DNA of 32,000 nucleotides from Candidatus Saccharimonadota bacterium (GTDB lineage Bacteria > Patescibacteriota > Gracilibacteria > UBA1369 > 2-02-FULL-48-14), in contig JBAZVE010000001.1 in the NCBI GenBank assembly GCA_041661045.1, positions 540,001 to 572,000 on the forward strand, in the 5' to 3' direction. Shown piece by piece: positions 4,294 through 29,453 of the stretch. Numbering within the stretch: position 1 is the stretch's first letter; the number at the start of each line of letters is the position of its first letter. Position numbers and translations under genes: made by a program. The notes under the pieces are model-generated. The model was not told the origin of the DNA. It did not search any database and saw only the letters and a list, made by a program, of their open reading frames with translations.

Positions 4294-4347
4294 CCCCACT
4301 CGGGCTCGCGCCTGAGACTAGAGAGCCCTGCTTCGGTGGGGTTTTTT
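4294..4347 (+). terminator. Rho-independent terminator candidate after the small lipoprotein ORF
   Basis: CCCCAC (4294-4299) pairs with GTGGGG (4336-4341). An inner GGGCTC/GAGCCC stem (4302-4307 with 4323-4328) is also present, followed by TTTTTT (4342-4347). Confidence 0.55.
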
Positions 4348-4738
4348 AGTGCTTTGGAGGAAAGCGTTTTTTCCCGCATTTCACAAGATCTTGGTCCAAG
4401 GTTACCAGTGTTAGATCCCGCTCTCTGCTTAAAATCAATAAACTTGCATCTATAAAAGAGATTTTCTCGTTTTGTTTTAAAAAAAGATCTAAGGTCATCT
4501 CGAGTTCTTCTTGGCTGAGGCGGAGAAACTTTAAGCCCTCTGTGCTTTGGAGGAAGTCTATGGCCTGCTTTGCGACAGCATGTCCCTCACGCAGTTGCAG
4601 CACGGTTGCCACTTCAGACAAAACATAGTCGTGGATTGCAAAAGACTCGAGGGGGTCTATGAATTTGCAAGCAGATTCATGGTGGTCTTCCGCTGGGCGG
4701 AAATAGGCAATAATCATGTTGGAATCCAGAAGAACCAT
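4346..4738 (-). CDS. vapC: PIN-domain ribonuclease toxin (VapC-like)
   Basis: MVLLDSNMIIAYF... has the N-terminal D of a PIN domain, and later ISFIDASLL...TLVTLDQDL supplies further acidic residues. It is translationally coupled to the upstream AbrB-type gene (ATGA overlap at 4738). Confidence 0.7.
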   Translation of the reverse strand: MVLLDSNMIIAYFRPAEDHHESACKFIDPLESFAIHDYVLSEVATVLQLREGHAVAKQAIDFLQSTEGLKFLRLSQEELEMTLDLFLKQNEKISFIDASLLILSRERDLTLVTLDQDLVKCGKKRFPPKH

Positions 4739-4995
4739 CAGAAAGTGTAGATAATTTTATCGATATTTTGAGCCAAGTTGTGTTCGGTGGGGCATTTGCT
4801 CTTTTTAATTTTCCATTTCTTGAAGTCTTCTAAGGTATATTTTGGTTTCTTTTGATGTGTTTTCTGTATTTCTATGGGGCGGAAAAGTAAGCCCTCATCC
4901 GTTAAATCGCAAAAAAACATTTGGGTCTTCAATTTTCTCCTCAAGTGAATGGGGATGGTGATTTGTCCGCTGGTGGTGACTTTGACAACATTCAT
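4738..4995 (-). CDS. vapB: AbrB/SpoVT-type antitoxin (VapB-like)
   Basis: MNVVKVTTSGQITIPIHLRRKL fits the SpoVT/AbrB swapped-hairpin DNA-binding motif. It sits immediately upstream of, and overlaps, the PIN gene. Confidence 0.65.
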   Translation of the reverse strand: MNVVKVTTSGQITIPIHLRRKLKTQMFFCDLTDEGLLFRPIEIQKTHQKKPKYTLEDFKKWKIKKSKCPTEHNLAQNIDKIIYTF

Positions 4996-5622: not shown

Positions 5623-5712
5623 TGGCGGAAGGGGGGAGATTCGAACTCCCGAAACCCTTTCGAGTTTACCCGCTTTCCAAGCGAGCGCACTAGGCCACTA
5701 TGCGACCCTTCC
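5623..5712 (-). tRNA. tRNA-Ser (anticodon GGA), long variable arm, encoded CCA
   Basis: Reverse complement is GGAAGGGTCGCATAGTGGCCTAGTGCGCTCGCTTGGAAAGCGGGTAAACTCGAAAGGGTTTCGGGAGTTCGAATCTCCCCCCTTCCGCCA. Acceptor GGAAGGG/CCCTTCC. Anticodon stem CTCGC/GCGGG with loop TTGGAAA. Variable arm AAACTC-GAAA-GGGTTT. T-arm GGGAG-TTCGAAT-CTCCC. Confidence 0.9.
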
Positions 5713-7081: not shown

Positions 7082-7157
7082 GCCGCGGTAGCTCAGTTGG
7101 TAGAGCGCATCCATGGTAAGGATGAGGTCTCGGGTTCGATTCCCGATCGTGGCTCCA
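7082..7157 (+). tRNA. tRNA-Thr (anticodon GGT), encoded CCA
   Basis: GCCGCGGTAGCTCAGTTGGTAGAGCGCATCCATGGTAAGGATGAGGTCTCGGGTTCGATTCCCGATCGTGGCTCCA. D-arm is GCTC-AGTTGGTA-GAGC. Anticodon stem CATCC/GGATG with loop ATGGTAA. T-arm is TCGGG-TTCGATT-CCCGA. Confidence 0.92.
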
Positions 7158-7162
7158 TTTTT
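7112..7162 (+). repeat. 51-bp direct repeat, left copy (attL-like): 3' half of tRNA-Thr from the anticodon loop through CCA plus 5 T
   Basis: catggtaaggatgaggtctcgggttcgattcccgatcgtggctccattttt is identical base for base to 10354-10404. Confidence 0.9.
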
Positions 7163-7309: not shown

Positions 7310-8383
7310 TTAAAAAGAGATATGTTCTCTCAGGCCATTTACTTTAGACCAATGTAGGTCTCCCGTATGAGCTAACCTCCCGGCTACTACTGCTACCCCG
7401 ATATCTACTTTCTTTGCAAAACTAGTAACTTCCTGTGCTATACCCCTCATACTTAGCTCTTCAAAGTTAATATCTTTGGCCCAACTTTCGTAGTCAGCTT
7501 TAGGTATCAGTGTATTTTCAGCGAATTCATCTGCTTCTTTCTCTCGTTCATCTAAAGATTTCTCAAACTCTATAAATAGATCCTTTTTTCCGTGCTTGAG
7601 GATGTGGCCAAGCTCATGAAAGAAAGTGAACCAAATTATATCTTTACGTTTACCTTTTTCATTAAGTTGCACGATTGGGTTATCTCTAAACCAAAAAGTA
7701 GCACCATTTATTTTTGTTTTCCCAAATTTTGGCATAAGCACCGTAACTATACCAATCTCTGCACATAATTCTTTAAGCTTGTCTTCAAAATTAGGCTCCT
7801 TGGTAAGCTCTCTAAACTTACTAAGGTTTACTCTTAGTTTCTTCTCATCAAACTCTTTTACAGGTGTTCTTTCTGCTGTAATCTGGCCACATCTTATCCA
7901 TGCCGCCAAACAGAAAATATTTTGTTCTGTCGATTTCTTGCCAGTTTCTCGATAGTTCACCCCAGTTGACAAGGGAACTAGGGACAATGATTGTACTTTG
8001 AAAAAATCTAGTAAAGCTAATACTCTTTCGCGTTTAACTCGAGTTTTTCTCACGAACCCTAATGAGACAAGTTCGTTATAACAGGGGAACTGATTTAAAT
8101 GTTGTTCTTCTGCATCTATAAGTTTTTCTTGTTCTATTCTTGCCAAACATTCTTGGTAGTTCTTTTCTAAATTATTCCAAAAGCTTGCCTTGATCCCCAA
8201 GACTCTTTCAAAGCGAAGGGCAGTTTCTGGAGAAATTGAGGCCGATCCATTAATGATCTGACTAATGTGCTTCTCAGATAAATCTGTCCGTATAGCCAAA
8301 TCTTTTTGGCTTATTTTTAGGAACTCTAGGTTCTCTGCTAGAGTTTCTCCGGGGTGTACGAGAATTGTGGTATGAGGGGTCAT
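7310..8383 (-). CDS. higA: HigA-type HTH antitoxin fused to an ImmA/IrrE-type zinc metallopeptidase domain
   Basis: N-terminus HPGETLAENLEFLKISQKDLAIRTDLSEKHISQIINGSASISPETALRFERVLGIKASFWNNLEKNY matches the HigA/VapI XRE-HTH pattern. C-terminal WFTFFHELGHILKHGKKD carries an HExxH motif in the context typical of ImmA/IrrE (COG2856). The start is 1 nt downstream of the higB stop. Confidence 0.72.
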   Translation of the reverse strand: MTPHTTILVHPGETLAENLEFLKISQKDLAIRTDLSEKHISQIINGSASISPETALRFERVLGIKASFWNNLEKNYQECLARIEQEKLIDAEEQHLNQFPCYNELVSLGFVRKTRVKRERVLALLDFFKVQSLSLVPLSTGVNYRETGKKSTEQNIFCLAAWIRCGQITAERTPVKEFDEKKLRVNLSKFRELTKEPNFEDKLKELCAEIGIVTVLMPKFGKTKINGATFWFRDNPIVQLNEKGKRKDIIWFTFFHELGHILKHGKKDLFIEFEKSLDEREKEADEFAENTLIPKADYESWAKDINFEELSMRGIAQEVTSFAKKVDIGVAVVAGRLAHTGDLHWSKVNGLREHISF

Positions 8384-9963: not shown

Positions 9964-10353
9964 AGGTATTAGTTTTTAGCCCTAAAGGAGCCAGTTGCGA
10001 TATAGTAGAAATCTCTTCTAAGACCCTCAAAAGTATTTTAAATACGAAAGTGATTGTAGTGAGACCCCAGTCGGAACATTTTTTGAGGATTCTGCGCATG
10101 CTGTGTTTTATCAAGATATTTTCATGTTCCAGGTTTTTTTGCAAATATAACTCGTTTAAATCATTTGTTTTGTTTTTTATTCTTTCGATTTGACCTCACT
10201 TGCATTTCTTAATCAGCTGGCATTTTCGAGCCTCTTGCTGCAATCTCTTTGTCCTTGAATGTACTCTTTACTTAGTTCCTTCACAAATCGAGCCCGCTCT
10301 ATTACGGATGGCTAAGCTAAGCCAAAAAGGTGGTGCATTCTATAGACCAATTT

Positions 10354-10404
10354 CATGGTAAGGATGAGGTCTCGGGTTCGATTCCCGATCGTGGCTCCAT
10401 TTTT
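10354..10404 (+). repeat. 51-bp direct repeat, right copy (attR-like): orphan 3' half of tRNA-Thr
   Basis: Identical to 7112-7162. It lacks the tRNA 5' half, since the upstream sequence tatagaccaattt is unrelated. Confidence 0.9.
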
Positions 10405-11852: not shown

Positions 11853-12581
11853 ATGATCACTAACAGTGAATTGGAAGCAGGGCGTGTGTTTGATCCCGCA
11901 GTGCAAGGTGATGCGGAAAACATTGGGTTTGTGCATCGTCACTTAGAGATAGCTTTGAGCCATACAAGGCTGGGCCGTGTTGAACGAGGACTCGATGGAG
12001 ATGCCTTTGTTTTGTTGGAACAGTTGAGGTTTGCACATTTAGTCATAAGGAGTGTCCCTTCGGATGCACGCAGGGGGTTTGATCAGGATGAAATGGCAGT
12101 GTGTATGGCTGTTGCTGGTCTTTCGAAACAATTGGCAGATAGCTTGCTCGCAAATGGAGAGCCTCAAACGGTTGAACGAAAACGCAGCATCTTTCAGGCT
12201 TTAAGTGAATTCGATAAACTTACTTTGAATCGAGCTGATTTATTGGCGGAATTTTACCCGAAAGTTCAAGTGGCTTTGGACTTGGCGGAACACTATAAAC
12301 GGGCTGGCATTTTAATGCGGTTTTATAGATTGAATCACTATCATCCAAACAAGGCGGTAAGGGGCATGGCAAAGATGGTTTTGTTCGACTTTTTAATGCC
12401 TGCATTGGACTATGTTGGGGAGTCACCGTCGGGAGCTCAGTCCCCAGAGGAGTTGAGTGATATTATGTCCGTATGGTCGAAGCTTGAGGGTACAGAACGG
12501 GCAGGTATGCCGACGGGGCTTTCTCCTCAAGTTTTAGATTCGTGGCTTTGTGGACATGAGAGAGACCTGTTAAGCTCCTAA
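11853..12581 (+). CDS. Hypothetical protein (about 242 aa)
   Basis: ORF track starts at TTG 11823, and the first ATG in frame is at 11853. No motif recognised. Confidence 0.5.
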   Translation: MITNSELEAGRVFDPAVQGDAENIGFVHRHLEIALSHTRLGRVERGLDGDAFVLLEQLRFAHLVIRSVPSDARRGFDQDEMAVCMAVAGLSKQLADSLLANGEPQTVERKRSIFQALSEFDKLTLNRADLLAEFYPKVQVALDLAEHYKRAGILMRFYRLNHYHPNKAVRGMAKMVLFDFLMPALDYVGESPSGAQSPEELSDIMSVWSKLEGTERAGMPTGLSPQVLDSWLCGHERDLLSS

Positions 12582-13057
12582 ATCTTCCGTGAGTCGTAGG
12601 CCCAGTGGAGGAGGGCTTGTCTTTGTTTGCGGCGGCAATTTTGCTGGCCAGGTTCACAGTTCTTTTGAATTTGTGCGATGTGCCGTTTCATGGCCTTCCA
12701 ACGCTTGATTTGCCTCTGGTCTTCCTCGGGAGTTCGACGGCCGAGATAATAGCGACAATACCATTGGAACCAGCCTCGTGGATCTTGAGGGTGTATCCAG
12801 CCTTTCTTTTGCCAGTATTCGAGTGGCATGGAGGCTTCGACGCCAAAGCAGTTCGATTTTTTCACATGAAGAAACCAAGATTTGGGGAATTCGTCGGGTT
12901 CATCGGCGATGTAAGTTCCATTGAAGACGCCGAGCTCGAGCATTTCTTTGGGGGTGAGCTCCGGTTTGAATTCAGGATCGAAATCTTTACCCGTTGGACA
13001 AGTCAGCAGGTAGTAGCCGTTTTGGAAGGAATCGTTGATGAGGATTTTCTTGGGCAC
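12578..13057 (-). CDS. Conserved hypothetical protein, Trp-rich (GWIHPQDPRGWFQWYCRYYLGRR motif)
   Basis: 159-aa ORF with a GTG start. The Trp/Arg-rich motif looks like a conserved family, but I cannot name it with confidence. Confidence 0.55.
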   Translation of the reverse strand: MPKKILINDSFQNGYYLLTCPTGKDFDPEFKPELTPKEMLELGVFNGTYIADEPDEFPKSWFLHVKKSNCFGVEASMPLEYWQKKGWIHPQDPRGWFQWYCRYYLGRRTPEEDQRQIKRWKAMKRHIAQIQKNCEPGQQNCRRKQRQALLHWAYDSRKI

Positions 13058-20036: not shown

Positions 20037-20834
20037 ATGGATCTTTCCATCGTCATTTTGCATCACGGAAGCCCCAAGGAGGTCACGGCCAACTTGCAAG
20101 CTTTGAAGGCCGCGCGACTCCCCAAGAAGACCGAAGTTTTTGTGATCAACAATGGGCAGAAGGGGGCCAATGCCAAGATTCCTTTTGACTCCAATCTTTC
20201 TTTTGATCTCCGTTATTTTGAGATTGAGAATCAGGGTTATCCGCAGGGAAATAACTTTGGGCTTCGCATGGCCAAAGGGAAATTCCTTTGTATTTTGAAT
20301 CCGGATATTGAGGTTAAGAAAAATACATTTGAAGTCGTGCTTTCGTATCTGCAGGCTCACCCCCGCGTGGGCATCGCGGCCCCGCGGCTTCGTTATCCGG
20401 ATGGATCGATTCAAGATAATTACCGGTCTTTCCCTCGTTTGATCGACCATTTTATTAAGCGGCTTTTTTTGAGACATTTTTTTACGGCCCGCATGCGCCG
20501 TTACTTGATGTGGAACAAAGATCCTAGCAAGTCTGAAGCGGTGGATTGGCTCACGGGCGCGTTCCAGGTTTTCACACGCAAGGCGTGGAACAAAGTGGGG
20601 CCAAACGACGAACGATACTTCCTTTTTATGTCTGATGTGGACATTTGTAGACAAGCGTGGGCCCGTGGCTTTGAAGTCCATTTTGTTGGGGAAACTGAGG
20701 CCCTTCACAACGATGCCCGCCTCTCTTCCGGCGGACTTCTTTCCTTTTTCACCAAGCCCACGCTCCGCATCCATTTGTGGGACGCCCTCAAGTATTATAA
20801 AAAGTTTTTTGGACGAGCCCTTCCCAAAATCTGA
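20037..20834 (+). CDS. Glycosyltransferase family 2
   Basis: LSIVILHHGSPKEV...VFVINNG...NQGYPQGNNFGLRMAKGKFLCILNPDIEV is a typical GT2 N-terminal domain including the DxD-like NPD. Confidence 0.75.
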   Translation: MDLSIVILHHGSPKEVTANLQALKAARLPKKTEVFVINNGQKGANAKIPFDSNLSFDLRYFEIENQGYPQGNNFGLRMAKGKFLCILNPDIEVKKNTFEVVLSYLQAHPRVGIAAPRLRYPDGSIQDNYRSFPRLIDHFIKRLFLRHFFTARMRRYLMWNKDPSKSEAVDWLTGAFQVFTRKAWNKVGPNDERYFLFMSDVDICRQAWARGFEVHFVGETEALHNDARLSSGGLLSFFTKPTLRIHLWDALKYYKKFFGRALPKI

Positions 20835-20848
20835 GCTTTTGCTACAAT
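20821..20848 (+). promoter_or_regulatory. Candidate promoter for tRNA-Trp (TTCCCA-N16-TACAAT)
   Basis: -35-like TTCCCA at 20821-20826 and -10-like TACAAT at 20843-20848. The leader contains a GTGGC-GCAA-GCCAC hairpin (20890-20903). Confidence 0.3.
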
Positions 20849-20914
20849 CCTCCCACCAAGCCGAAGCGAAGCGGAGGCTAAGCAACAAGGTGGCGCAAGC
20901 CACATCGTTACCAT

Positions 20915-20988
20915 AGGTCCATCGTATAGTGGTAGTACAGCGGTCTCCAAAACCGTTAGCGAGGGTTCGATTCCTTCTGGGCCTGCCA
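20915..20988 (+). tRNA. tRNA-Trp (anticodon CCA), encoded CCA
   Basis: AGGTCCATCGTATAGTGGTAGTACAGCGGTCTCCAAAACCGTTAGCGAGGGTTCGATTCCTTCTGGGCCTGCCA. Acceptor AGGTCCA/TGGGCCT. Anticodon stem GCGGT/ACCGT with loop CTCCAAA. T-arm GAGGG-TTCGATT-CCTTC. Confidence 0.88.
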
Positions 20989-20995
20989 TGATAAA

Positions 20996-21481
20996 ATGAT
21001 TGCAATGCGTATAAGATTTCTTTTTCTTCCTCTTTTATTCCTACTGAGCACCTGTTCGACTCAGGTTCAGGAAGAGGCAGAGAGACTCAAGATTCCTGAC
21101 TATGGTTTTGCATTGGAAGCCGACATGTCCGAGTGTGGGAGGCCCAACGCTGTTTTGAACTTTGATGTTGATAGATGGTTTTCCTATGTGGGTGAGCAAG
21201 CTGTTTTTTTTGCACGCGTGGATGGCATCTCAAGTGAAGGGGACTCACTTCGCTTGGAATGGGTGGTGAAAGGAAACGAACATGGGATGGTGAAGGAGGA
21301 TGTTTTTTTGTACGAAGAAGAGCTTGAGGTGAAGCAATGTCCGGATGGGAACTTGTATGCTTCCTCCCCATTGGATTCAGGGACTGAGAATTCAGTTGTG
21401 GGGATATTTGGAGGTTTTACTGCTCAGCTTTTTCAAGAGGACGAGCTTGTCTACAGTGCGCACCTTAGCCTTGGGCAGTAG
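20996..21481 (+). CDS. Putative lipoprotein (161 aa), unit A of the array
   Basis: MIAMRIRFLFLPLLFLLSTCSTQ is a signal peptide with a Cys at a lipobox-like position. The ATG lies only 8 nt after the tRNA-Trp 3' end. The stop codon TAG (21479-21481) overlaps the first base of repeat R1. Confidence 0.55.
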   Translation: MIAMRIRFLFLPLLFLLSTCSTQVQEEAERLKIPDYGFALEADMSECGRPNAVLNFDVDRWFSYVGEQAVFFARVDGISSEGDSLRLEWVVKGNEHGMVKEDVFLYEEELEVKQCPDGNLYASSPLDSGTENSVVGIFGGFTAQLFQEDELVYSAHLSLGQ

Positions 21482-21510
21482 TTCGAACTAGTTCCACGCT
21501 GGCCTGCCAA
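21481..21510 (+). repeat. Array repeat R1 (30 bp)
   Basis: gttcgaactagttccacgctggcctgccaa. It lies between the convergent stops of unit A (21481) and unit B (21515). Confidence 0.85.
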
Positions 21511-21514
21511 CTTA

Positions 21515-22753
21515 TTAAGAAGTCTTTTGAGCGCTGTTGAACTCTATAAAACGCTGTCTTGCTTCTTTAGCCGAACTGAAAGCCTCGGGAGGGTACCCTT
21601 CAAATAAGTCGTCGAATCGCTCTCTAAGTACTTTGCTTCTTTGTAGAGCGTCGCCCCACTTACGCAGCATTTCCAGCACCCCTTCATCTCTAGTGAACAC
21701 GCCCCCTTCCTGGCCCAGAATTTCTTGTATGAGGAGGAGGTTTACTTGTCCGGACGGAGTTTTCCTCAGCTCTTCTATACGAGCTTTTGTTATTTCAAAG
21801 AGTTTTTTGTACCTAGGTATAAACTCTGCTGCACGGCGAGAACTTGCACTGGTGGAACGCGTAGAGCGCCTAACCGCAGCCGCTTTATCCGCTATCCACA
21901 TGAGCCAAGAGTCTGGAGTGGCTTGTATGACTACACTCGTAGCGGCACTAACAGCAGTTAGAGCCATGAATCCGGCTGGTGCGATTATTGCCATGGGTTC
22001 ACCAACTGCAAATACGACGGGAAGTGAAGCCACGGTCAGAGTCGCCCCTCCTACGAATCCCCTTGTAGCGTACTCGCTGGTTCTCTCCTTTAAGGACATA
22101 GTACTGCCACGGGATATTTCATTACGGGCGTCATCTCCCGAAAACATTTGTACCCAGTCGTCGTCGGTGAAACTTTGTCCGGTCAGTGCTCGTTCAACAA
22201 TGGCAGTGTTCACTTGGGCCCAGACACCTCCGACCCATCCTTCTCCTAAAGCGCTTTGGATGAATCTACCATTGAAGAAAGAGTGGCCGGTTGGCTGAGA
22301 AAACCGTCCTCCTAAGGGTTGAGTCCCATCCAGTACTCGCAGACCTTCACCATGTACCTCATTCGCGGCTGCGGCAACACTGCTTGCATCGGCCGGGGTG
22401 AGCTGAGCAAATTGAGCAATGAACTCGGTGATGGTGTTAAAACGCAAGGCGCTATTTTTTTCCAAAGCCATTAAAATAGCGGCGCGATTGGGGAGATTGT
22501 CCCTTAGGCCATCCGTGGACTGCGCGACGATTCTTTGCAGGGCTGCCGTTTTTTGTCGCTGAGCTATATTGACTATATTAGGGTCTCTCGCGCCTTGGCC
22601 CAGCTCTTGCAGATCAAATATATGCAAGGTGGCCATGAAACTCCGTCCGTGCAGAGCGTCGATAATGTCGTCGATTTCATACAGATCTCCCGCAATAGCT
22701 ACAAAGCGAGGCTCTTTGGGTTTATCGGCGTTCTTGAGGAGATCATTGGGCAT
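21515..22753 (-). CDS. Hypothetical protein (412 aa) with central hydrophobic segments, unit B
   Basis: Long ORF with an ATG start. The central GGATLTVASLPVVFAVGEPMAIIAPAGFMALTAVSAATSVVIQA suggests two TM helices. No family recognised. Confidence 0.55.
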   Translation of the reverse strand: MPNDLLKNADKPKEPRFVAIAGDLYEIDDIIDALHGRSFMATLHIFDLQELGQGARDPNIVNIAQRQKTAALQRIVAQSTDGLRDNLPNRAAILMALEKNSALRFNTITEFIAQFAQLTPADASSVAAAANEVHGEGLRVLDGTQPLGGRFSQPTGHSFFNGRFIQSALGEGWVGGVWAQVNTAIVERALTGQSFTDDDWVQMFSGDDARNEISRGSTMSLKERTSEYATRGFVGGATLTVASLPVVFAVGEPMAIIAPAGFMALTAVSAATSVVIQATPDSWLMWIADKAAAVRRSTRSTSASSRRAAEFIPRYKKLFEITKARIEELRKTPSGQVNLLLIQEILGQEGGVFTRDEGVLEMLRKWGDALQRSKVLRERFDDLFEGYPPEAFSSAKEARQRFIEFNSAQKTS

Positions 22754-22773
22754 AAGAGTTTTTTGTTCCGTTA

Positions 22774-22802
22774 ATTATACCTTATTTCTCCGATTTTATC
22801 TA
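22774..22802 (-). promoter_or_regulatory. Candidate promoter for unit B (TAGATA-N17-TATAAT on minus strand)
   Basis: Consensus -10 TATAAT (plus-strand attata, 22774-22779) lies 20 nt upstream of the ATG. A weak -35 is at 22797-22802. The element ends 8 nt from repeat R2. Confidence 0.35.
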
Positions 22803-22809
22803 TCTAATG

Positions 22810-22839
22810 GCTCGAACCAGTTCCCCGTTGGCCTGCCAA
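22810..22839 (+). repeat. Array repeat R2 (30 bp)
   Basis: gctcgaaccagttccccgttggcctgccaa, 26/30 identical to R1. It lies between divergent units B and C. Confidence 0.8.
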
Positions 22840-22895
22840 GCAATAGTTAGACAAGCCGCCTCCTCTTTGATAGATTGGGCGCTTCTTATTTGTTT

Positions 22896-23837
22896 ATGGT
22901 GAATCGGTTGAGAGCGTGGGTGGGAGGTGAATTCACTGCGTGGGCTGAGTGGGTGGCTGCTCGACCTGAAATGAGAGAATATCTTTTGATTCAAGAACAA
23001 AATGATCGGTTGCATTCGCGTGCTCCAGGAAAGTATGAAAATATCACGGCCGTTTTTAAGGTGCTGGCCACTTTCAACCCCCTTTCACGCTTTTTAGGAA
23101 CTATGCCGGAGGGTTATGCTCCAGCCATTGAAGTGGCTTACCACCTTTGCCGTTGGGTGGATGATGTTGCGGATGGGGATCTGCCATTGCCGGAGTCTTA
23201 TAAGGATTTTGCTGCTTTGGTAGCCGCACTTAAAGTTCATCTTTCTGGAAGCTCTGCCCTGTCTGCTGAAGACACCGACCTAGAGTTTTTGTTAAAACGC
23301 ACGCTTCAAAAACTGGACAAGCATCCGGTGCCTACTATCGATATACGAAAAGAAATGGGCCTTTTTCTTGATGCCATGCAGGTGGAACATGACAAACGAG
23401 TGGAGGGAGAGGTTCTCACTCGTGAGAAGCTCGAGGCACTTTATAGAGGCTCCTTTGGGCCACCTCATATGCTCGCATTCGCAGCATTGGGGTCAAGTTG
23501 TTCGGGTGAGGCCATTGCTGATCTTTTTCAACTTCAAGGGCGCTTGTATGCCGTTAGAGATTTGATTCCGGAACTTTCCAAAGGGATTATTTTTATTCCG
23601 CTGGAGGTGGTGAAGGAGAGTGGGCTGCGCCAGGACGAGTTGACTGGCGATCCAGAAACAGCCGTGCAAAATGAAGTCATTCAAAGGTGGATTGCCGAAG
23701 AAGATCGCTATGGACTTCAAACCATCGCAGCTCTTCGTGAGAAGTCGAAGAGTCTTCCTTTGGATGTGAAGGGAGTGGTGGAGTTCTTGGTTAAACCTAT
23801 TGAAGTGAACATTAGGACTCGGCGAGCCATTTCTTAG
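22896..23837 (+). CDS. Squalene/phytoene synthase family-like protein (head-to-head isoprenoid synthase fold), unit C
   Basis: AIEVAYHLCRWVDDVADGD fits the first Asp-rich motif context (xxCRxxDDxxD). LFQLQGRLYAVRDLIPELSKGIIFIPLEVVKESGL parallels the second motif region (FQLxNxxRDxxED...G..YxPxE), with the second motif partly degenerate. First ATG is at 22896; the ORF track TTG is at 22875. Confidence 0.55.
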   Translation: MVNRLRAWVGGEFTAWAEWVAARPEMREYLLIQEQNDRLHSRAPGKYENITAVFKVLATFNPLSRFLGTMPEGYAPAIEVAYHLCRWVDDVADGDLPLPESYKDFAALVAALKVHLSGSSALSAEDTDLEFLLKRTLQKLDKHPVPTIDIRKEMGLFLDAMQVEHDKRVEGEVLTREKLEALYRGSFGPPHMLAFAALGSSCSGEAIADLFQLQGRLYAVRDLIPELSKGIIFIPLEVVKESGLRQDELTGDPETAVQNEVIQRWIAEEDRYGLQTIAALREKSKSLPLDVKGVVEFLVKPIEVNIRTRRAIS

Positions 23838-23853
23838 CTTTTGCTTAATGGAT

Positions 23854-23892
23854 GTTCGAACTAGTTTCCCGTTGGCTCTGTCGCTAAGCCAA
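23854..23892 (+). repeat. Array repeat R3 (39 bp variant with a 9-nt expansion inside the TGGC..GCCAA core)
   Basis: gttcgaactagtttcccgttggctctgtcgctaagccaa. The first 23 nt are 20/23 identical to R1. The stop codon of minus-strand unit D (23884-23886) lies inside the expansion. Confidence 0.7.
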
Positions 23893-24147
23893 TAGGGTCA
23901 GCCAAATAGCTTTTCGTTTTAAGTCACAGAATTGGATCACTTGCTCAAAGCTGCGGCCGCTTTCAAGACTAGTTTGCAGCTTCATATACTCTTCGACGGC
24001 ACCGTAGAAATTTGCGGGTATGCCGAGCCCTGAATTTACAACAGCTTCTCGTTCGTGTGCTGAACCTGAACGCATATCAGTAATCAGAACTTTTGTTCCT
24101 GGTTCAAGTGTTCTTAGTTCTTCTATAGATAAAGGTGTATCCCCCAT
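23884..24147 (-). CDS. Hypothetical small protein (87 aa from ATG), unit D
   Basis: MGDTPLSIEELRTLEPGTKVLITDMRSGSAHEREAVV... The ATG at 24147 is preceded by a TTGACA-N17-TAAATT promoter-like element. The ORF track GTG start at 24270 would include that promoter, so I reject it. Confidence 0.45.
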   Translation of the reverse strand: MGDTPLSIEELRTLEPGTKVLITDMRSGSAHEREAVVNSGLGIPANFYGAVEEYMKLQTSLESGRSFEQVIQFCDLKRKAIWLTLLA

Positions 24148-24154
24148 GTCGTAT

Positions 24155-24183
24155 AATTTATATGTATTTCTCAGTTTTGTCAA
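24155..24183 (-). promoter_or_regulatory. Candidate promoter for unit D (TTGACA-N17-TAAATT on minus strand)
   Basis: Consensus -35 TTGACA (plus-strand tgtcaa, 24178-24183). The -10-like TAAATT (24155-24160) lies 7 nt upstream of the ATG. Confidence 0.4.
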
Positions 24184-24359
24184 GGTGTTTGAACTAAAAA
24201 GACCCCAGAGATGAATATCCCTGTGGAAAGAATTTTTACAGGGGTACCTCTTCCTGGTACGGATGAACACGAGATTTATTTGAATAAGGGTTCAGGGATG
24301 GTCGAGTTTGCAGGTACTATTTCGGATGGAGAGGTCATTTCTTTATAGGTTAAAAATCC

Positions 24360-24389
24360 ATTCGAACTCGTTCTATGCTGGCCTGCCAA
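24360..24389 (+). repeat. Array repeat R4 (30 bp)
   Basis: attcgaactcgttctatgctggcctgccaa, 26/30 identical to R1. It lies between divergent units D and E. Confidence 0.8.
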
Positions 24390-24405
24390 ATTAACCTGTG
24401 ACTTT

Positions 24406-24426
24406 GGGTCGATTCCCGCAGGGCCT
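24406..24426 (+). other. tRNA T-arm/acceptor-like fragment following R4
   Basis: gggtcgattcccgcagggcct compared with tRNA-Trp gggttcgattccttctgggcct. The T-loop and acceptor blocks are shared while the stem positions differ. Confidence 0.5.
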
Positions 24427-24427
24427 C

Positions 24428-24455
24428 TTGACATATTGTAAAAAATATGTACTAT
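24428..24455 (+). promoter_or_regulatory. Candidate promoter for unit E (TTGACA-N16-TACTAT)
   Basis: Consensus -35 TTGACA at 24428-24433, directly abutting the tRNA-like fragment. -10-like TACTAT at 24450-24455. The ATG is at 24494. Confidence 0.4.
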
Positions 24456-24493
24456 ATTTACGAAGTAACAAATTTAATCTCTACAATCAAAAC

Positions 24494-25126
24494 ATGAGCA
24501 CTCCAGAAACACCTATAGATTATGAGGAGCTTAGTAGGCGTACATTCCCTGATGTTGAGGCTTTTCTTTCCTGTTTGGAAGATGAATATGGTTTAGATGT
24601 TAGTAGGTTAACTGTCGAAGGGCAAAGGGTATCACGTCCACTTAGCCCACTCGCGTACCCAAATGCACAAGGTCAAATTGCGTTTGCAGCTGGTGTTACT
24701 GTTACTAAAGAAATATTTCGATTGGCGATTGATGCTTTATCGGTTAAACCCTCCACTGTTCTACCAACACAGGCTTTCAGGTTACCTGCAAGCATTGGCA
24801 TACGAGTAGCTGATGCATTGAGAAGATTTCCGACTCCGCCAGAAGCTGAGATCGGTGAAGCTAGAGGGATTCTTATTGAGCGAGATGGAGGATACTTCTT
24901 TATGTCTGAGGCTGGTCAAGAGTACCGTGTTGTAGAGGAAGGTTTGGCCTCGTTAGAGCGAGTTTTTGATGCAGATGACAAAGCTGCACTACTAAGAGGA
25001 AGTACAGAAATAGGTCAACAGGGGTGCCGACCACTACTGTTAGTTGAATTAAATCCGATAGATCCATCTCCAGGTATAGAGCAGGTTGTGACTAAATTTT
25101 GGGATCCTGAGGAGTACGAGAGTTAG
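24494..25126 (+). CDS. Hypothetical protein (210 aa from ATG), unit E
   Basis: MSTPETPIDYEELSRRTFPDVEAF... The ORF track GTG start at 24398 would run through the tRNA-like fragment and the promoter, so the ATG at 24494 is preferred. No family recognised. Confidence 0.5.
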   Translation: MSTPETPIDYEELSRRTFPDVEAFLSCLEDEYGLDVSRLTVEGQRVSRPLSPLAYPNAQGQIAFAAGVTVTKEIFRLAIDALSVKPSTVLPTQAFRLPASIGIRVADALRRFPTPPEAEIGEARGILIERDGGYFFMSEAGQEYRVVEEGLASLERVFDADDKAALLRGSTEIGQQGCRPLLLVELNPIDPSPGIEQVVTKFWDPEEYES

Positions 25127-25146
25127 ACATATGGATTCTATAATTA

Positions 25147-25176
25147 GTTCGGACTGGTTCCACGCTGGCCTGCCAA
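25147..25176 (+). repeat. Array repeat R5 (30 bp)
   Basis: gttcggactggttccacgctggcctgccaa, 28/30 identical to R1. It lies between tandem units E and F. Confidence 0.85.
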
Positions 25177-25188
25177 GTAACCTGATGT

Positions 25189-25213
25189 GAGAGTTCGATT
25201 CCTGTTGGGGTTC
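25189..25213 (+). other. tRNA T-arm/acceptor-like fragment following R5
   Basis: gagagttcgattcctgttggggttc compared with tRNA-Trp gagggttcgattccttctgggcctg, about 20/25 identical. Confidence 0.55.
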
Positions 25214-25286
25214 TGGTGGTATCCATTTTAGTGTTTCTTAGTTTCATCCTCTAGGAGTACTATGTTTTTAGCTTAAAAACTTTACC

Positions 25287-26501
25287 ATGAAGATTCGCTT
25301 CCTCGCGCTTTCCGTCATCCTTTTTTTTGCTTTCCCCACTATCAGTTTGGCAGCAGATGTTGACTCTCTGGCTGACTACGATGTCGAAATGAACTTTTCC
25401 ATGTCTTACAGTGAAGATTTATCTGAGGGTGTCTCGGGTTCTTTGAGGGGGACTTACATTATCAGCGTTGATACTGAAGATGAAGTATATTGGAATGCGA
25501 CTTACACATGTGGCTACGAACTTATTCTTAGCGAGGAAGATCCTTTAGAAAACGACGATTATGAAGTGATTTATGAGGGTGGTAGTGAATGTGATAGGTC
25601 CTTAGGATCAGGGGATTACTTGATCAGCCAAGGGGAATCTTATAATGGTGGTATTTCACTCGGTGGGCAGGATTTCATTCAAGACGGAGCTCATTATTGG
25701 TATCAGTTCACCCTCTACACTATTGATGAGGTGGCCGCAGTCGTGGATTTTGAGACTGTTGTTGGAGATTTTACCATCGAATTTGATGAACTCGACGAGC
25801 CTTTTACTGATGTGAATGGACATTGGGCGGAGAACTACATCAATGCCTTGGCTACTGATGAAGTTGTTTTAGGGTATACAGATGGTACCTATAAACCGGA
25901 TCAGCAGACTTCTCGTGCGGAGGTGCTTGTCATGGCGCTAAAAGCCATCGCTGATCCCTCTTCTGAAAACGACACCTGTGCTTATGATTTTGACTTAGAA
26001 CAAGATTACACTGCCACTTACACGGATCTTGATTCATCTCACTGGGGGTTTACATATATTGAAGCAGCTACCGAGGCTGGTGTGGTTTCTGGTTATGGCG
26101 ATGGTTCGTTTAGGCCTGATCAAACCGTCACCCGTGCCGAAGCGTTATCTATTCTTCTGGAAACTTACTTTGCCTGTGGTGACTATTATGACATTGATGA
26201 CTGGTATGATAACTATGATCGATACTCGAGTGATCCGGTAGAAAATGATGGAGAGTTTTGGGCGGCTTACTTAGAACAAGGATACGGTGTGGCCAGTGAA
26301 CAAAATCTTGCACTTGGATTTGCCGATGTCACCGAGGATTGGCAGCGCTTCTATGTTCACTTTGCAGACATTCATGGTGTGGTGAATGGATACTTTGAGG
26401 GAGTTACTCTATTTCTCCCTAATAATCCGATTACTCGTGCTGAACTTGCCAAAATGGCATGGAAGTTACGCGTAAATCCCCATAATCCGGAACCCTTTTA
26501 A
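25287..26501 (+). CDS. Secreted protein with three C-terminal S-layer homology (SLH) domains, unit F
   Basis: Signal peptide MKIRFLALSVILFFAFPTISLAA. SLH-like repeats are FTDVNGHWAENYINALATDEVVLGYTDGTYKPDQQTSRAEVLVMALKAI, YTDLDSSHWGFTYIEAATEAGVVSGYGDGSFRPDQTVTRAEALSILLE and FADVTEDWQRFYVHFADIHGVVNGYFEGVTLFLPNNPITRAELAKMAWKL. Confidence 0.75.
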   Translation: MKIRFLALSVILFFAFPTISLAADVDSLADYDVEMNFSMSYSEDLSEGVSGSLRGTYIISVDTEDEVYWNATYTCGYELILSEEDPLENDDYEVIYEGGSECDRSLGSGDYLISQGESYNGGISLGGQDFIQDGAHYWYQFTLYTIDEVAAVVDFETVVGDFTIEFDELDEPFTDVNGHWAENYINALATDEVVLGYTDGTYKPDQQTSRAEVLVMALKAIADPSSENDTCAYDFDLEQDYTATYTDLDSSHWGFTYIEAATEAGVVSGYGDGSFRPDQTVTRAEALSILLETYFACGDYYDIDDWYDNYDRYSSDPVENDGEFWAAYLEQGYGVASEQNLALGFADVTEDWQRFYVHFADIHGVVNGYFEGVTLFLPNNPITRAELAKMAWKLRVNPHNPEPF

Positions 26502-26538
26502 TCGTACGAAACGAAAATTTAGATCCCTCGTATAATTA

Positions 26539-26568
26539 GGTCGAACTCGTTCCACGCTGGCCTGCCAA
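26539..26568 (+). repeat. Array repeat R6 (30 bp)
   Basis: ggtcgaactcgttccacgctggcctgccaa, 28/30 identical to R1. It is the last copy seen. A weak T-loop-like remnant tgtgatatagttcgaaagcatttg follows at 26587-26610. Confidence 0.85.
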
Positions 26569-26619
26569 TAAGCATTTTTAGGGCTTTGTGATATAGTTCG
26601 AAAGCATTTGTTTTTTAAA

Positions 26620-28293
26620 ATGGAAAAAAACTGTAATCACTGCGAAATAAGATTCGAAATTCCTGAAGAAGATTTGGAATTTTTCCACAAAATTTCACCG
26701 GTTTTTAATAATGTGAGGTACCTGATTCCAGAACCTGCGCTGTGTCCAGACTGTCGCTTGCAAAGGAGGATCAGTTGGAGGAATGAAAGGGCACTTTATA
26801 TGCGAGCCTGTGATTTGTGCAAAAAAAATATTGTCTCTGTTTACTCTCCGGGTAAGCCTCATCCTGTTTATTGCAACGCGTGTTGGTGGGGGGATGGATG
26901 GGATGGACACCACTATGGAAGAGAGGTCGATTTTTCACGGCCGTTTTTTGATCAACTCAGAGAGGTGATGGAAGTGGTGCCTCAGTTGGCCATTCAAAAT
27001 GATGAGGGAAATGGCAGTGAAAATTGCCAATACTGCCAGGATTTTGCTCATGGGAAAAATTGTTATTTTGTGGTTGGTTCGTGGCATACAGAAAACTCTT
27101 TTTACTCTAATGTGAATGCTTCCCACAATCGGTCTATTTGTGATTGCATCAATGTTTCCAAATCGGAGCTCGTGTATGAAAGCCTGGATTCCCAAGCGCT
27201 CTACAACTGTGCTTTTCTACAAAATTCCCAAAATTGCAGTGACTGCATCTTCGGGTTTGATCTCAAAGGATGCAGAAATTGTTTTGGGTGTTTTGGTCTG
27301 AGGCAGAAGGAGTTTTATTTTTTTAATGAACCCTTGAGTGAAGCAGAGTACAAGAAAAAACTCACTGCTTTTGCTTTAGACTCCTATAAAAATTTAGAAC
27401 TTATTAAGAAACAGTTTTTGGGCTGGATTGTGCAGTTCCCACATAAAAGCACGAGCCAACAAAATTGTGAGAACTGTGAGGGAAATGATTTGTTCAATTG
27501 TAAAAACACTCAGGGATTCAGTCTTCTGGATGCGGAAAATTGTAAGTACTGCCATCAAGGGGATAATAACATGTTCAGCTACGACATTTTTAATAGTGGA
27601 CAGCCCAACTGGTGTTACGAAGGCATGACCCCAGACAACTCGTTTATGACTCATTTTTCGTGGTTCTCTTGGAAAAATAAATTCGTACTTTATGGGATCA
27701 ATTGTCACAGCAGTGAACATCTTTTTGGATGTGTTTCTCTTCACCGAGCTAAATACAGCATTCTCAATAAACAGTACTCAAAGGAAGAGTATGAGGCTTT
27801 GGTTCCGAAGATCATTGAACACATGAAAAAAGGTGGTGAGTGGGGTGAATTTCCACCAGCTCGCATTTCTTACTTCGATTACAACGAGAGCATCGCTCAA
27901 GAATATTTTCCTTTGAAAAAAGAAGAGGTTTTGGCACAAGCTTGGAAGTGGAAAGATCCTGACCCCAAAGAGTACCGGACGCAAACTTGTGTGATTCCCG
28001 ATTCTATTTTGGAGGCGACTGATGTTCTTAGCAAAGAAGTTCTGGCCTGCATCGAGTGTGGTAAAAACTATAAAGTGATTCCTCTCGAATTCGAATTCTA
28101 TAAAAAGATTTCTTTCCCCATCCCTCGGAAGTGTCCCGACTGTCGACATAAAGCACGGCTTGCTATCCGGTTGCCCTATCAGCTGTGGCAACGCAATTGT
28201 GCAAAATGTTCTAAATCCATTCAGACTCCCTACGCGCCCACACGGCTTGAGGTGATTTACTGTGAAGAGTGCTATTTGAAGGAGATTTATTAA
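26620..28293 (+). CDS. Cysteine-rich protein (557 aa) with similar N- and C-terminal double zinc-ribbon-like modules and a central region of CxxC-type repeats
   Basis: N-terminal CNHC...FFHKISP...CPDCR...CDLCKKNI...VYCNAC and C-terminal CIECG...FYKKISFPIPRKCPDCR...CAKCSKSI...IYCEEC. ATG at 26620 is preferred over TTG at 26608. No family name recalled. Confidence 0.65.
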   Translation: MEKNCNHCEIRFEIPEEDLEFFHKISPVFNNVRYLIPEPALCPDCRLQRRISWRNERALYMRACDLCKKNIVSVYSPGKPHPVYCNACWWGDGWDGHHYGREVDFSRPFFDQLREVMEVVPQLAIQNDEGNGSENCQYCQDFAHGKNCYFVVGSWHTENSFYSNVNASHNRSICDCINVSKSELVYESLDSQALYNCAFLQNSQNCSDCIFGFDLKGCRNCFGCFGLRQKEFYFFNEPLSEAEYKKKLTAFALDSYKNLELIKKQFLGWIVQFPHKSTSQQNCENCEGNDLFNCKNTQGFSLLDAENCKYCHQGDNNMFSYDIFNSGQPNWCYEGMTPDNSFMTHFSWFSWKNKFVLYGINCHSSEHLFGCVSLHRAKYSILNKQYSKEEYEALVPKIIEHMKKGGEWGEFPPARISYFDYNESIAQEYFPLKKEEVLAQAWKWKDPDPKEYRTQTCVIPDSILEATDVLSKEVLACIECGKNYKVIPLEFEFYKKISFPIPRKCPDCRHKARLAIRLPYQLWQRNCAKCSKSIQTPYAPTRLEVIYCEECYLKEIY

Positions 28294-28397
28294 TGTATTT
28301 TCGTATCCCATAGTTATGGGTCCTTTCGTGGTATAGGGCTAGACAAAGCCAAATATTGCTGTTAAAAAGGAATACATTTATTTCATAGCAAAGCCGT

Positions 28398-29453
28398 ATG
28401 GGGTATCAATCACTATCAGACTTCGTGGAACGGGTTCTTGGGGCGAGTCAAGCTGATCCTGGATTAGGACAACGGGTACAAGCATTGATAGGGGAATTAG
28501 CGCAATTACATCAACAATTAGGTGATGCTCAAGTTGCACTTCAAAAACCTCGACAGTGGAAAGATGGTGAAGTGGTGGGGAATGTTGCGGGTTTTGAAGT
28601 GCATGATGATTTAAAACAAGGAAGGCGCAGCCCCTTCTTTTTAGAGCCGGGTGGTAGAGGAGTACTTTCCCGCCGTAGGACGGGAATTTTAGATGGAAGG
28701 ACCTTAAGAGATCTCGTTTCGGAGTGGGTTATGAATGGAATCACTCCCACTACATGGAAAATGCCGGATGAACAAGATGCGGGCCCTATTGGAATTGTTG
28801 AACGGCGTGGGGCCGATTTGCATCTCGATGGCGCTGAGCGGCCTTTTTTCTCCGGAGTTCAGGTTGATAAAGATGTATGTAGCCGGCGTGGGCCTGGAGA
28901 TAGTGGTGGGTGGAAAATTGGAGTAGATGGAGTTTATGTGCTAAGGAATAGAACGCTTAAACGGGTGGAGCCTCGCTCTGGCAAAGTTAAGGATGTGTAT
29001 ACCTTTCAGTCTAGGGCACCCAGGGACCGGGATTGGATGCCCGCTCCTCAAGGTTTTGTTGTCTATGATGGCGGACACTTTTTACTGAATGGATCTGACA
29101 GTATTCAGGGCCAAACTTTTGGTCAGATACTAGAATGGTATCCTGTGCCGGAGGGAGTAATGGTCCAACTCCCCCTAGCTCCCGGGTATCCGTCCCGGGG
29201 TGCAGCTTGGTATCTGAACCGATCGCTTTATGACTCAAAATCGTTTTCCTTTGAGCTGGCGAAGCCTTTGGCTGACGGACCTGTGTCTATGGATAGGACA
29301 TCTTTGTGGCGTGATGAACTTCAGTTTGCACCAAAAGGAGACCACCGGCTCTTTCATCCGCAAGGAGTCTTTGTGATAACGGGGGATGAAATAAAATTCT
29401 ACAATTATCCTTCGGAAAGTGACAGACTGCAGCTTGAGGAGGAGATAGATTAA
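28398..29453 (+). CDS. Hypothetical protein (351 aa)
   Basis: Long ORF with an ATG start and no strong competing ORF. No motif recognised. Confidence 0.5.
   Translation: MGYQSLSDFVERVLGASQADPGLGQRVQALIGELAQLHQQLGDAQVALQKPRQWKDGEVVGNVAGFEVHDDLKQGRRSPFFLEPGGRGVLSRRRTGILDGRTLRDLVSEWVMNGITPTTWKMPDEQDAGPIGIVERRGADLHLDGAERPFFSGVQVDKDVCSRRGPGDSGGWKIGVDGVYVLRNRTLKRVEPRSGKVKDVYTFQSRAPRDRDWMPAPQGFVVYDGGHFLLNGSDSIQGQTFGQILEWYPVPEGVMVQLPLAPGYPSRGAAWYLNRSLYDSKSFSFELAKPLADGPVSMDRTSLWRDELQFAPKGDHRLFHPQGVFVITGDEIKFYNYPSESDRLQLEEEID

Follow-up and report, generated by a model that had tools for sequence, protein, structure and literature searches.

Among described mobile systems, the closest analogue of the locus considered here is found in the composite islands of staphylococci, SCC and SCCmec (staphylococcal cassette chromosome) with their pseudo-SCC units, whose Ccr enzymes are large serine recombinases (LSRs) and whose attB lies at the 3′ end of rlmH/orfX. 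In such islands tandem units are delimited by direct repeats of a core, and pseudo-SCC units devoid of ccr coexist with ccr-bearing ones (PMC6243372). As for tRNA genes, the Islander authors stated in 2014 that serine integrases were not known to target them (PMC4383910), the later literature having been only partly surveyed here. This article deals with a tRNA-Trp gene and the array of short direct repeats downstream of it, in a 32,000-nucleotide stretch of DNA from a Candidatus Saccharimonadota bacterium (contig JBAZVE010000001.1, positions 540,001 to 572,000, forward strand), hereafter called the window. In related Peribacteria, the 3′ end of tRNA-Trp, with its core GGCCTGCCA, is the attB of a family of mobile elements that encode an LSR. 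The window itself we read, with a probability of about 0.6, as a tandem array of six recombinase-less units at this attB, each ending in an element arm plus the core. A first-pass annotation of the same DNA had attributed the array to site-specific insertion at tRNA-Trp, and in this it is supported; it had also taken three of the repeat junctions for decayed, collinear copies of tRNA-Trp, a claim that fares less well below.

ARAGORN finds tRNA-Ser at 5623-5712 (minus strand), tRNA-Thr at 7082-7157 and tRNA-Trp at 20915-20988 (plus strand; CCA anticodon, encoded CCA, 60.5 bits with Rfam). The 3′ end of the last of these, at 20980-20988, is the shared core GGCCTGCCA, the apparent insertion point and part of the host-side left arm of the attachment site. 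Downstream lie six direct copies of a 30-mer (consensus GTTCGAACTnGTTCCACGCTGGCCTGCCAA), all on the plus strand and here called R1 to R6: 21481-21510 (GTTCGAACTAGTTCCACGCTGGCCTGCCAA, a consensus copy), 22810-22839, 23854-23883, 24360-24389, 25147-25176 (GTTCGGACTGGTTCCACGCTGGCCTGCCAA) and 26539-26568 (GGTCGAACTCGTTCCACGCTGGCCTGCCAA, the last copy found in the window), with start-to-start spacings of 1329, 1044, 506, 787 and 1392 bp. The last nine bases of the 30-mer are again GGCCTGCCA, the 3′ terminus of tRNA-Trp. Each interval between copies holds exactly one plausible open reading frame (ORF), in either orientation, and the units so delimited (c1 to c6) measure 0.5-1.4 kb; R itself keeps a constant orientation whatever that of the neighbouring genes. 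One copy, R3, retains its left 23 nt and loses the core after GTTGGC (30.1 bits with a position weight matrix). In the region 23854-23913, GTTGGC is followed by TCTGTCGC, and a look-alike core, GGGTCAGCCAAATAG, appears some 25 nt later, which gives the impression that the core was split by a short insertion.

Over positions 1-22 of the 30-mer the mean pairwise identity is 0.80-0.83, against 0.27-0.29 in the 30 nt on each side, both within the window and between genomes. The 30-mer is a sharp-edged block about one attP half-site long, and the view that it is conserved as a site, better than the tRNA-like sequence beside it, is borne out. Its supposed collinearity with the D-arm and anticodon arm of tRNA-Trp is not. 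In local alignments against shuffles, 38-nt blocks of R1-R6 match the 5′ part of the tRNA (D-arm to anticodon) at p = 0.12-0.83. The same blocks match the segment from T-arm to CCA at p ≤ 0.02 for R1, R2, R4, R5 and R6, because they end in GGCCTGCCA; this is all that R and tRNA-Trp have in common, the remainder being different, with a 5-nt offset. Within 20500-27500 the Rfam tRNA model (E ≤ 10) matches only the resident tRNA-Trp. With its filters off, a search with a covariance model built on eight tRNA-Trp genes from Peribacteria gives weak matches on R4 (E 0.9) and R6 (E 2.7), where GGCCTGCCA falls on model positions 66-74, and none on the T-arm-like fragments after R4 and R5. Aligning the junctions to covariance models, the check that the first-pass annotation had proposed for its tRNA copies, came out against them.

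Syntenic loci were collected from about ten Peribacteria genomes by pattern scans and through homologues of the upstream GT2 protein (fetched loci are numbered L001, L002 and so on). The exact-pattern scan for the repeat returned two real Peribacteria matches and two by chance in the genome collection, one real 1-kb contig and four by chance in the metagenome collection, and nothing in the viral collection. In all the syntenic loci a variable segment comes after the order GT2-GT2-tRNA-Trp. Of the other genomes, six have a contig that extends far enough past tRNA-Trp (L001, L002, L014, L017, L019 and L036), and these carry one or two copies of R, 0.4-4.7 kb downstream of it and in the same orientation, with two in L036.

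The recombination breakpoint lies exactly at the 9-base core in three genome comparisons. In L002 the CCA of tRNA-Trp is followed directly by ACATTATTAAGAAGTCTTTTG, which matches the sequence after R1 in the window, ACTTATTAAGAAGTCTTTTG, and an orthologue of the 412-aa gene of unit c2 comes directly after the tRNA. Since L002 lacks c1 between CCA and ACATTATTAAGAAGTCTTTTG, the segment 20989-21509 (the c1 ORF and R1) is inserted DNA, with GGCCTGCCA at either border. L027 and L025 have the 412-aa gene as neighbour as well, and c1 is an insertion relative to these too, the tRNA or the far end of an element there abutting the flank of that gene. L027 is an empty site, in which the tRNA ends in GGCCTGCCA and continues into TTCTCTAATCACATG. 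L025 is occupied: the tRNA with its GGCCTGCCA is followed by CACTGGATGATTTG, then, after 5.8 kb, by ..GTCCGTTAAGCCCTGCCA joined to TTCTCTAATCACATG, and the 74 nt after this second core are identical to the post-tRNA sequence of L027. These two loci encode an identical GT2 protein, and their minimal common core is CCTGCCA. Finally, L019 and L023 are 100% identical up to two bases past CCA, and unrelated beyond.

The insert of L025 also names the enzyme. Its first gene is for a protein of 496 aa that combines Resolvase, Recombinase and Zn_ribbon_recom domains, and this LSR gene abuts tRNA-Trp in both L025 and L029. Homologues of the L025 protein occur in L029 (83% identity), in the P0127 contig (86%), where the LSR adjoins the syntenic GT2 genes (gene neighbourhood only), and in L030 (67%), where the LSR gene ends in a tRNA-Trp 3′-half fragment at the contig end; a viral relative, L028, is uninformative at 32% identity. 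At this site in relatives the recombinase is an LSR with a 7-9 nt core, and not the tRNA-restoring tyrosine integrase that the first-pass annotation implied. The elements, 6-11 kb in size, have in common Fic, restriction-modification or Abi genes, a helix-turn-helix (HTH) protein and a PDDEXK nuclease, as well as a protein of 378 aa that weakly matches Phage_CRI. The L029 element closes, 11.2 kb away from the tRNA, with an R-type copy, GTTCGAACATTTTCTACGATGCCCTGCCAA. In L007, the 1-kb contig, a 29/30 copy of R is joined directly to the LSR-proximal arm, called M2 (CTGGATGATTTG..CTTCACGATTGTGGCGAAGGG), the joint being flanked by a MazF-like toxin gene and, on its opposite side, by an SLH gene. 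The 3′ end of the LSR ORF crosses the core into tRNA-Trp, by 33 nt in L025 (9694-9726) and by 15 nt in L029 (11459-11473), so that integration or excision would alter the C-terminus of the enzyme.

For the LSR elements of these relatives, then, the first ~26 nt of R are the element-side left arm and the rest is the core, and the same assignment probably holds in the window; the T-arm and acceptor region of the tRNA would be the host-side arm. This element-side arm stays behind after insertion, where the insert ends farthest from the tRNA; in the window, six scars of this kind in the same orientation suggest a tandem, tRNA-proximal build-up, in which units were inserted one after another at the CCA end. 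Because the units have no recombinase, they would depend on an LSR supplied in trans, by which they were presumably inserted and may still be movable, as pseudo-SCC elements are in the composite islands of staphylococci. Since no relationship exists between the right-hand flanks at occupied sites and at empty ones, the enzyme probably relies mainly on the tRNA-side arm. A further point concerns the motif TTCGA, which is found 19-23 nt from the terminal A in tRNA-Trp and 24-28 nt from it in R, that is, 5 bp farther from the core in R. The zinc-ribbon-domain motif of serine integrase sites shows such an offset, being 5 bp nearer the centre in attB than in attP (Rutherford et al., 2013; PMC3783163), and what is seen here is consistent with the attP/attB model without proving it.

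Several observations weigh against the window being such an array. No recombinase gene is present among the ORFs of the 32 kb, and, of the 120 best LSR homologues, not one maps to the 1,316,577-bp contig on which the window proteins were placed; nor did tblastx find remnants of LSR-element genes in the array. The far-end arms of L025 and L030 both end in GCCCTGCCA, yet they are just 55-70% identical to R (16/29 and 20/29, respectively, when aligned ungapped with R1). LSR sites would be expected to show imperfect dyad symmetry over about 40-50 bp around a central dinucleotide. The best ungapped symmetry of the joints amounts to 11-15 of 28 positions, against a shuffle mean of 12, and is not significant at any R-M or R-M2 joint (M being the tRNA-like module described below; p = 0.49-0.94); a single nominal p = 0.03 was obtained at R1-X, the joint of R1 with the sequence after it. 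Only the outer TTCGA-type motif is mirrored. The modules M and M2 are not significantly alike, so that M would be no more than a putative right arm for the same enzyme. Moreover, serine integrases do not normally recombine attP with attL, and strict attP × attB pairing is not enough to predict tandem arrays; tandem build-up therefore needs a tolerance of variable right arms, or some other route. Lastly, neither a circular or excised form nor an attP was found in the viral collection, where scans of contigs for the inferred attP (core plus M2, core plus M) gave only chance matches or none.

What, then, are the tRNA-like blocks beside some of the repeats? The strings that had been quoted for them are present in the DNA where they were placed, and those after R4 (24406-24426) and R5 (25189-25213), both on the plus strand, were correctly recognized as T-arm and acceptor fragments of tRNA-Trp. 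The 50 nt after each repeat were aligned to the tRNA-Trp 3′ half, from the AACC of the anticodon loop through the T-arm to the acceptor. The scores are 26 after R4 and 32.5 after R5, with shuffles at 13 ± 2.6, and none of 3000 shuffles reaches either. The flanks of R1-R3, described from the start as lacking a T-arm part, are at chance level (10.5-12, p > 0.5). So is the "weak T-arm" that had been proposed after R6 (26587-26610, plus strand), with a score of 12 against 11.5 ± 2.3 in shuffles (p = 0.49), and it is excluded from the feature. Counting the T-loop 8-mer TCGATTCC likewise places the blocks beyond chance: it occurs six times in 32 kb, for 1.17 expected, in tRNA-Thr, in the partial copy of tRNA-Thr, in tRNA-Trp, at the R4 and R5 junctions and at an unrelated minus-strand site (2360-2367). 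It had been claimed that the fragments differ from one another and from the resident tRNA. For R4 and R5 they follow different alleles, the R4 block GGGTCGATTCCCGCAGGGCCT being 21/23 identical to the T-arm and acceptor allele GGGTTCGATTCCCTCAGGGCCT of L001, L002 and L019 (score 38, against 26 with the resident tRNA-Trp), and the R5 block being closest to the resident-type allele (score 32); the R6 difference is noise.

Both blocks belong to a module, M, with copies on the plus strand at 24390-24426 after R4 (ATTAACCTGTGACTTTGGGTCGATTCCCGCAGGGCCT) and at 25177-25213 after R5 (GTAACCTGATGTGAGAGTTCGATTCCTGTTGGGGTTC), each a decayed tRNA-Trp 3′ half. Its position is immediately 3′ of a core, either that of the tRNA or that of R, at a distance of 2-3 nt, or of 46 nt in variants with a hairpin. 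Over 31 nt (25178-25208) the copy after R5 shares 93% identity with the block found behind tRNA-Trp in L001 (1954-1984). In L001, L017 and L019 the intact tRNA-Trp is directly followed by a hairpin-bearing M (1906-1984, 12917-12994 and 11874-11951, respectively), composed of TTTAACCTG, the hairpin AACCTGTTAACAGGTT (with a covarying form, AATCTGTAATCAGGTT, in L019), a T-run and TTTAACCTGATGAGTGAGTTCGATTCCTGTTGG. A direct copy of TTTAACCTG stands on each side of the hairpin and T-run, which together look like a terminator-like insertion of 44 nt in M; the copy after R5 is free of this part, the copy after R4 is a diverged form, and in L014 a copy follows a degenerate R (..CAGTAGTTGCCCTGCCA, then TGTAACCTGATTGGCGAGGGCGATTCCTGC). 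A folded T-arm was considered for M and rejected: by eye, stem pairs are broken in every copy, and the covariance model finds no match. These broken pairs, with an A.C mismatch kept in R5, L001, L017 and L019, argue against a folded and functional T-arm. In R4 and in L014 a −35 box TTGACA and a −10 box follow within 0-15 nt of M; in R4 this is a sigma-70-like promoter match, TTGACA-16-TACTAT (24428-24455, plus strand, 10/12 positions), upstream of the c5 ORF, in a region where such sites are not more numerous than in shuffles.

Because its similarity to the tRNA is direct in orientation and allele-specific, M appears to descend truly from tRNA-Trp 3′ halves, and to be a genuine relic of them at the left end of some units. 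The junction formed by R and M is an element-element (attP-type) joint within a tandem array, and not one pseudo-tRNA: instead of a single collinear decayed tRNA, there is an attachment arm with its core, followed in two cases by a partial tRNA 3′ half. The likeliest, though speculative, origin of M is capture from a donor tRNA-Trp. The anticodon loop, whose GGTCTCCAAAACC is similar to the core GGCCTGCCAA, may have been the place of an aberrant recombination that brought this about, with GCGGTCTCCAAAACCG as a candidate pseudo-site. Such an event would fuse the R arm to a tRNA 3′ half, which would then travel with the unit. In both R4 and R5 the tRNA homology starts right after the CCA of the core, which corresponds to its start behind the anticodon CCA of the tRNA itself, and this is compatible with capture through the pseudo-site. 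The same event would explain why the copies match different alleles, and why the homology in R4 ends at GGGCCT, beside the real core.

The facts just given can be arranged in other ways. The first-pass view, taken as a model, is that the junctions are collinear decayed copies of tRNA-Trp from D-arm to 3′ end, left by successive elements of the tRNA-restoring, tyrosine-integrase type that crossed over in the anticodon loop, the 30-mer being the 5′ two-thirds. It accommodates the real 3′ halves of different alleles after R4 and R5 and the start of their homology after CCA, and MAFFT does align the 30-mer opposite the D and anticodon arms. That alignment is at chance by the shuffle test, however, and the end of the 30-mer coincides with the tRNA 3′ terminus both in the covariance-model matches and in the comparisons of empty with occupied sites, L002 having CCA directly before the post-R1 sequence. 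Furthermore, covariation between the two acceptor strands (5′ and 3′) shows that the resident tRNA-Trp genes are not chimeric; no tRNA part accompanies R1-R3, R6 or the copies of R in other genomes; and Phage_integrase, the tyrosine integrase family, has no match among the window ORFs or, for the fetched loci, in their precomputed Pfam annotations. We consider this account improbable. An integron-type array with the 30-mers as attC sites is more improbable still, to the point of being hardly tenable. Single-gene units of 0.5-1.4 kb, repeats in one orientation and a cargo of ORFans and toxin-antitoxin genes do recall integrons, but no IntI-type tyrosine recombinase is found beside the array, the conserved block is just 30 nt long, genes occur in both orientations, and the repeats with their flanks are unfolded (z-scores −0.5 to +1.4), without a bottom-strand hairpin.

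Other readings keep the repeats as they are and question what acts on them. R might be a conserved chromosomal element, regulatory or protein-binding, with genes swapped by homologous recombination on the tRNA and R anchors, extra copies made by unequal exchange, and LSR elements merely sharing the hotspot. Most genomes indeed have one copy of R downstream of tRNA-Trp, the window has no recombinase, and R is at least 80% conserved where the flanking genes of the R-bearing genomes are only ~68% identical in DNA. Such an element would hardly be expected at the far end of an LSR element (L029) or beside the LSR-proximal arm (L007), nor would breakpoints fall exactly at a 9-nt core rather than scatter over homologous flanks; R moreover holds its orientation regardless of the genes, and has no hairpin or terminator structure. 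This reading seems unlikely. Rather less so, though still to be doubted, is the idea that M serves the cassettes as a functional right attachment arm, its likeness to a T-arm being maintained because a TTCGA-type motif is recognized by the recombinase on either arm as well as in the tRNA T-loop. The position of M after a core agrees with it, as does the conservation of TAACCTG...TTCGATTCCTG in six copies from five genomes; besides, GTTCGATT in M mirrors the outer ATTCGAAC of R, ~27 bp on either side of CC and nearly symmetric. Against this, overall dyad symmetry is not significant, the tRNA similarity is direct rather than inverted and reaches past the palindromic motif (GATTCCC.CAGGGCCT in R4), the two copies in the window match different tRNA alleles, and the LSR-bearing elements use an unrelated right arm, M2. 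The array of recombinase-less units at an LSR attB, with M as a relic, remains our preferred reading.

Unit c1 (20989-21509, 521 bp) contains a 161-aa ORF at 20996-21481, whose stop codon lies within CAGTAGTTCGAAC and overlaps the first base of R1. Unit c2 (21510-22838) has the 412-aa ORF at 21515-22753 (minus), then R2; c3 (22839-23883) has a 320-aa ORF at 22875-23837, similar to squalene/phytoene synthases, then R3; and c4 (23884-24388) has a 128-aa ORF at 23884-24270 (minus), then R4, these units being laid out along the plus strand. The c5 ORF (24494-25126, plus strand) encodes 210-242 aa and is an ORFan, its protein having no homologue among 5.8 billion proteins; the c6 ORF (25287-26501, plus strand) encodes a 404-aa protein with three SLH domains. 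Pfam recognizes only SQS_PSY in c3 and SLH in c6, with no match in c1, c2, c4 or c5, and the cargo genes are described as ORFans. PADLOC found nothing in the cargo, and PHROGs matches fall solely on the SLH region of c6. Among the cargo of R-bounded units in other genomes are toxin-antitoxin genes. L036 has a YafQ-like toxin and its small partner (12026-13012), L007 a PemK/MazF toxin (614-976), and this cargo resembles that of integrons and of SCC units.

Apart from this, the window consists of ordinary chromosomal DNA that encodes SmpB, L28, NadE, GT2 glycosyltransferases and an ABC transporter, and its nearest relatives are metagenome-assembled genomes named Candidatus Peribacteria or Peregrinibacteria. 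The GC content falls to 0.40-0.44 across 23501-28500, between flanks at 0.48-0.50; this low-GC part spans units c4-c6 and, after R6, the gene for a 561-aa zinc-finger protein, a homologue of which (34% identity) sits within the tRNA-to-R interval in L013-L016. The fall in GC content and the ORFan cargo both speak for the array reading. When the window's own proteins were looked up, only fragmented Logan contigs from the same sample were returned, broken inside the array. Compared with window 20900-23700, contigs L010, L011 and L012 (SRR18595301, an independent assembly of that sample) break at tRNA-Trp and at R2 and are without ~22890-23690, which could reflect population heterogeneity of the array or a repeat-induced break. 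A second tRNA gene also has a displaced copy: the final 62 nt of tRNA-Thr (7101-7162) recur at 10343-10404, where they are 92% identical. The two copies bracket a 3.2 kb low-GC segment (0.38-0.41) without integrase, whose cargo includes a protein with HTH and Peptidase_M78 domains (7310-8383, minus) and a weak HigB-like toxin, and which looks like a classical tRNA-gene (tDNA) island that is now recombinase-less. Finally, between smpB and tRNA-Ser, a PIN-domain toxin (4346-4738, minus) adjoins a weak MazE/AbrB-type antitoxin (4738-4995, minus).

A broader proposal, which we put forward tentatively and at less than even odds, is that Peribacteria possess a tRNA-Trp-anchored, integron-like platform for gene capture by a serine integrase, on which recombinase-less single-gene cassettes, each with an element arm of ~26 bp and a 9-bp core, enter and leave the CCA end of the tRNA by an enzyme acting in trans, and occasional look-alike capture at the anticodon CCA spreads tRNA 3′ halves from lineage to lineage. 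It would amount at once to a serine integrase that targets a tRNA gene and to a novel kind of mini-cassette. If this is true, serine integrases would extend to a tRNA-gene target, bacteria of the candidate phyla radiation (CPR) with very small genomes would keep a dedicated hypervariable locus for gene capture, and units the size of integron cassettes would have been built on a different recombinase family. The natural attB/attP candidates (~50 bp each) and the integrases of 490-500 aa would also be candidate tools for genome engineering. For annotation, the lesson is that what looks like a short piece of tRNA beside a conserved repeat need not be a pseudogene but can be a composite joint of attachment sites.

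How does the locus compare with systems already known? Like integron arrays, it consists of single-gene units, mostly ORFan or toxin-antitoxin, each with one short site in the same orientation, behind a fixed primary site; unlike them, it has no IntI and no folded attC, its sites are conserved in sequence and not in structure, and its genes lie in both orientations. With tDNA islands of tyrosine integrases, of the Islander type, it has in common a tRNA hotspot, displaced tRNA fragments, tandem arrays and cargo-only units. Recombinase-less relatives of such islands also exist, namely the tycheposon remnants of Prochlorococcus. The locus differs from these islands in having no tyrosine integrase, in that repeat and tRNA have only 9 nt in common instead of a restoring segment of 17-45 nt, and in that the tRNA-like fragments are distinct from the repeat. 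The LSRs of phages and integrative and conjugative elements (phiC31, Bxb1, A118/LI, TP901-1) show the same Resolvase-Recombinase-zinc ribbon architecture, a comparably short host/element identity of 7-9 nt, and an integrase gene that adjoins and overlaps the attachment site, and the placing of the outer motif in their host sites, 5 bp nearer the centre (PMC3783163), would be consistent with the TTCGA offset seen here. Unlike theirs, the sites inferred here have dyad symmetry not above chance, very variable right arms, and tandem build-up.

It is with the SCC islands that the likeness goes furthest. In both, a large-serine-type recombinase inserts DNA at the 3′ end of a conserved gene that is left intact, repeated insertion at one gene-proximal site would give the tandem arrays, and recombinase-less units (six in the window, two R in L036) occupy the same site as LSR-bearing ones (L025, L029). 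SCC units, roughly 10-60 kb long, are far larger than the 0.5-1.4 kb units of the window, which hold one ORF each and are known here from sequence alone. The target is a tRNA gene rather than rlmH, the host is a CPR bacterium, an arm of ~26 nt is conserved together with a 9-nt core, and some units carry part of the target tRNA. The likeness is one of a common way of working and not of membership, target gene and host being different. The locus is thus best filed as a variant of the serine-integrase composite island, with tRNA-Trp as its target and a CPR bacterium as its host, made of cassette-sized, recombinase-less units, some of which bear relics of a tRNA 3′ half.

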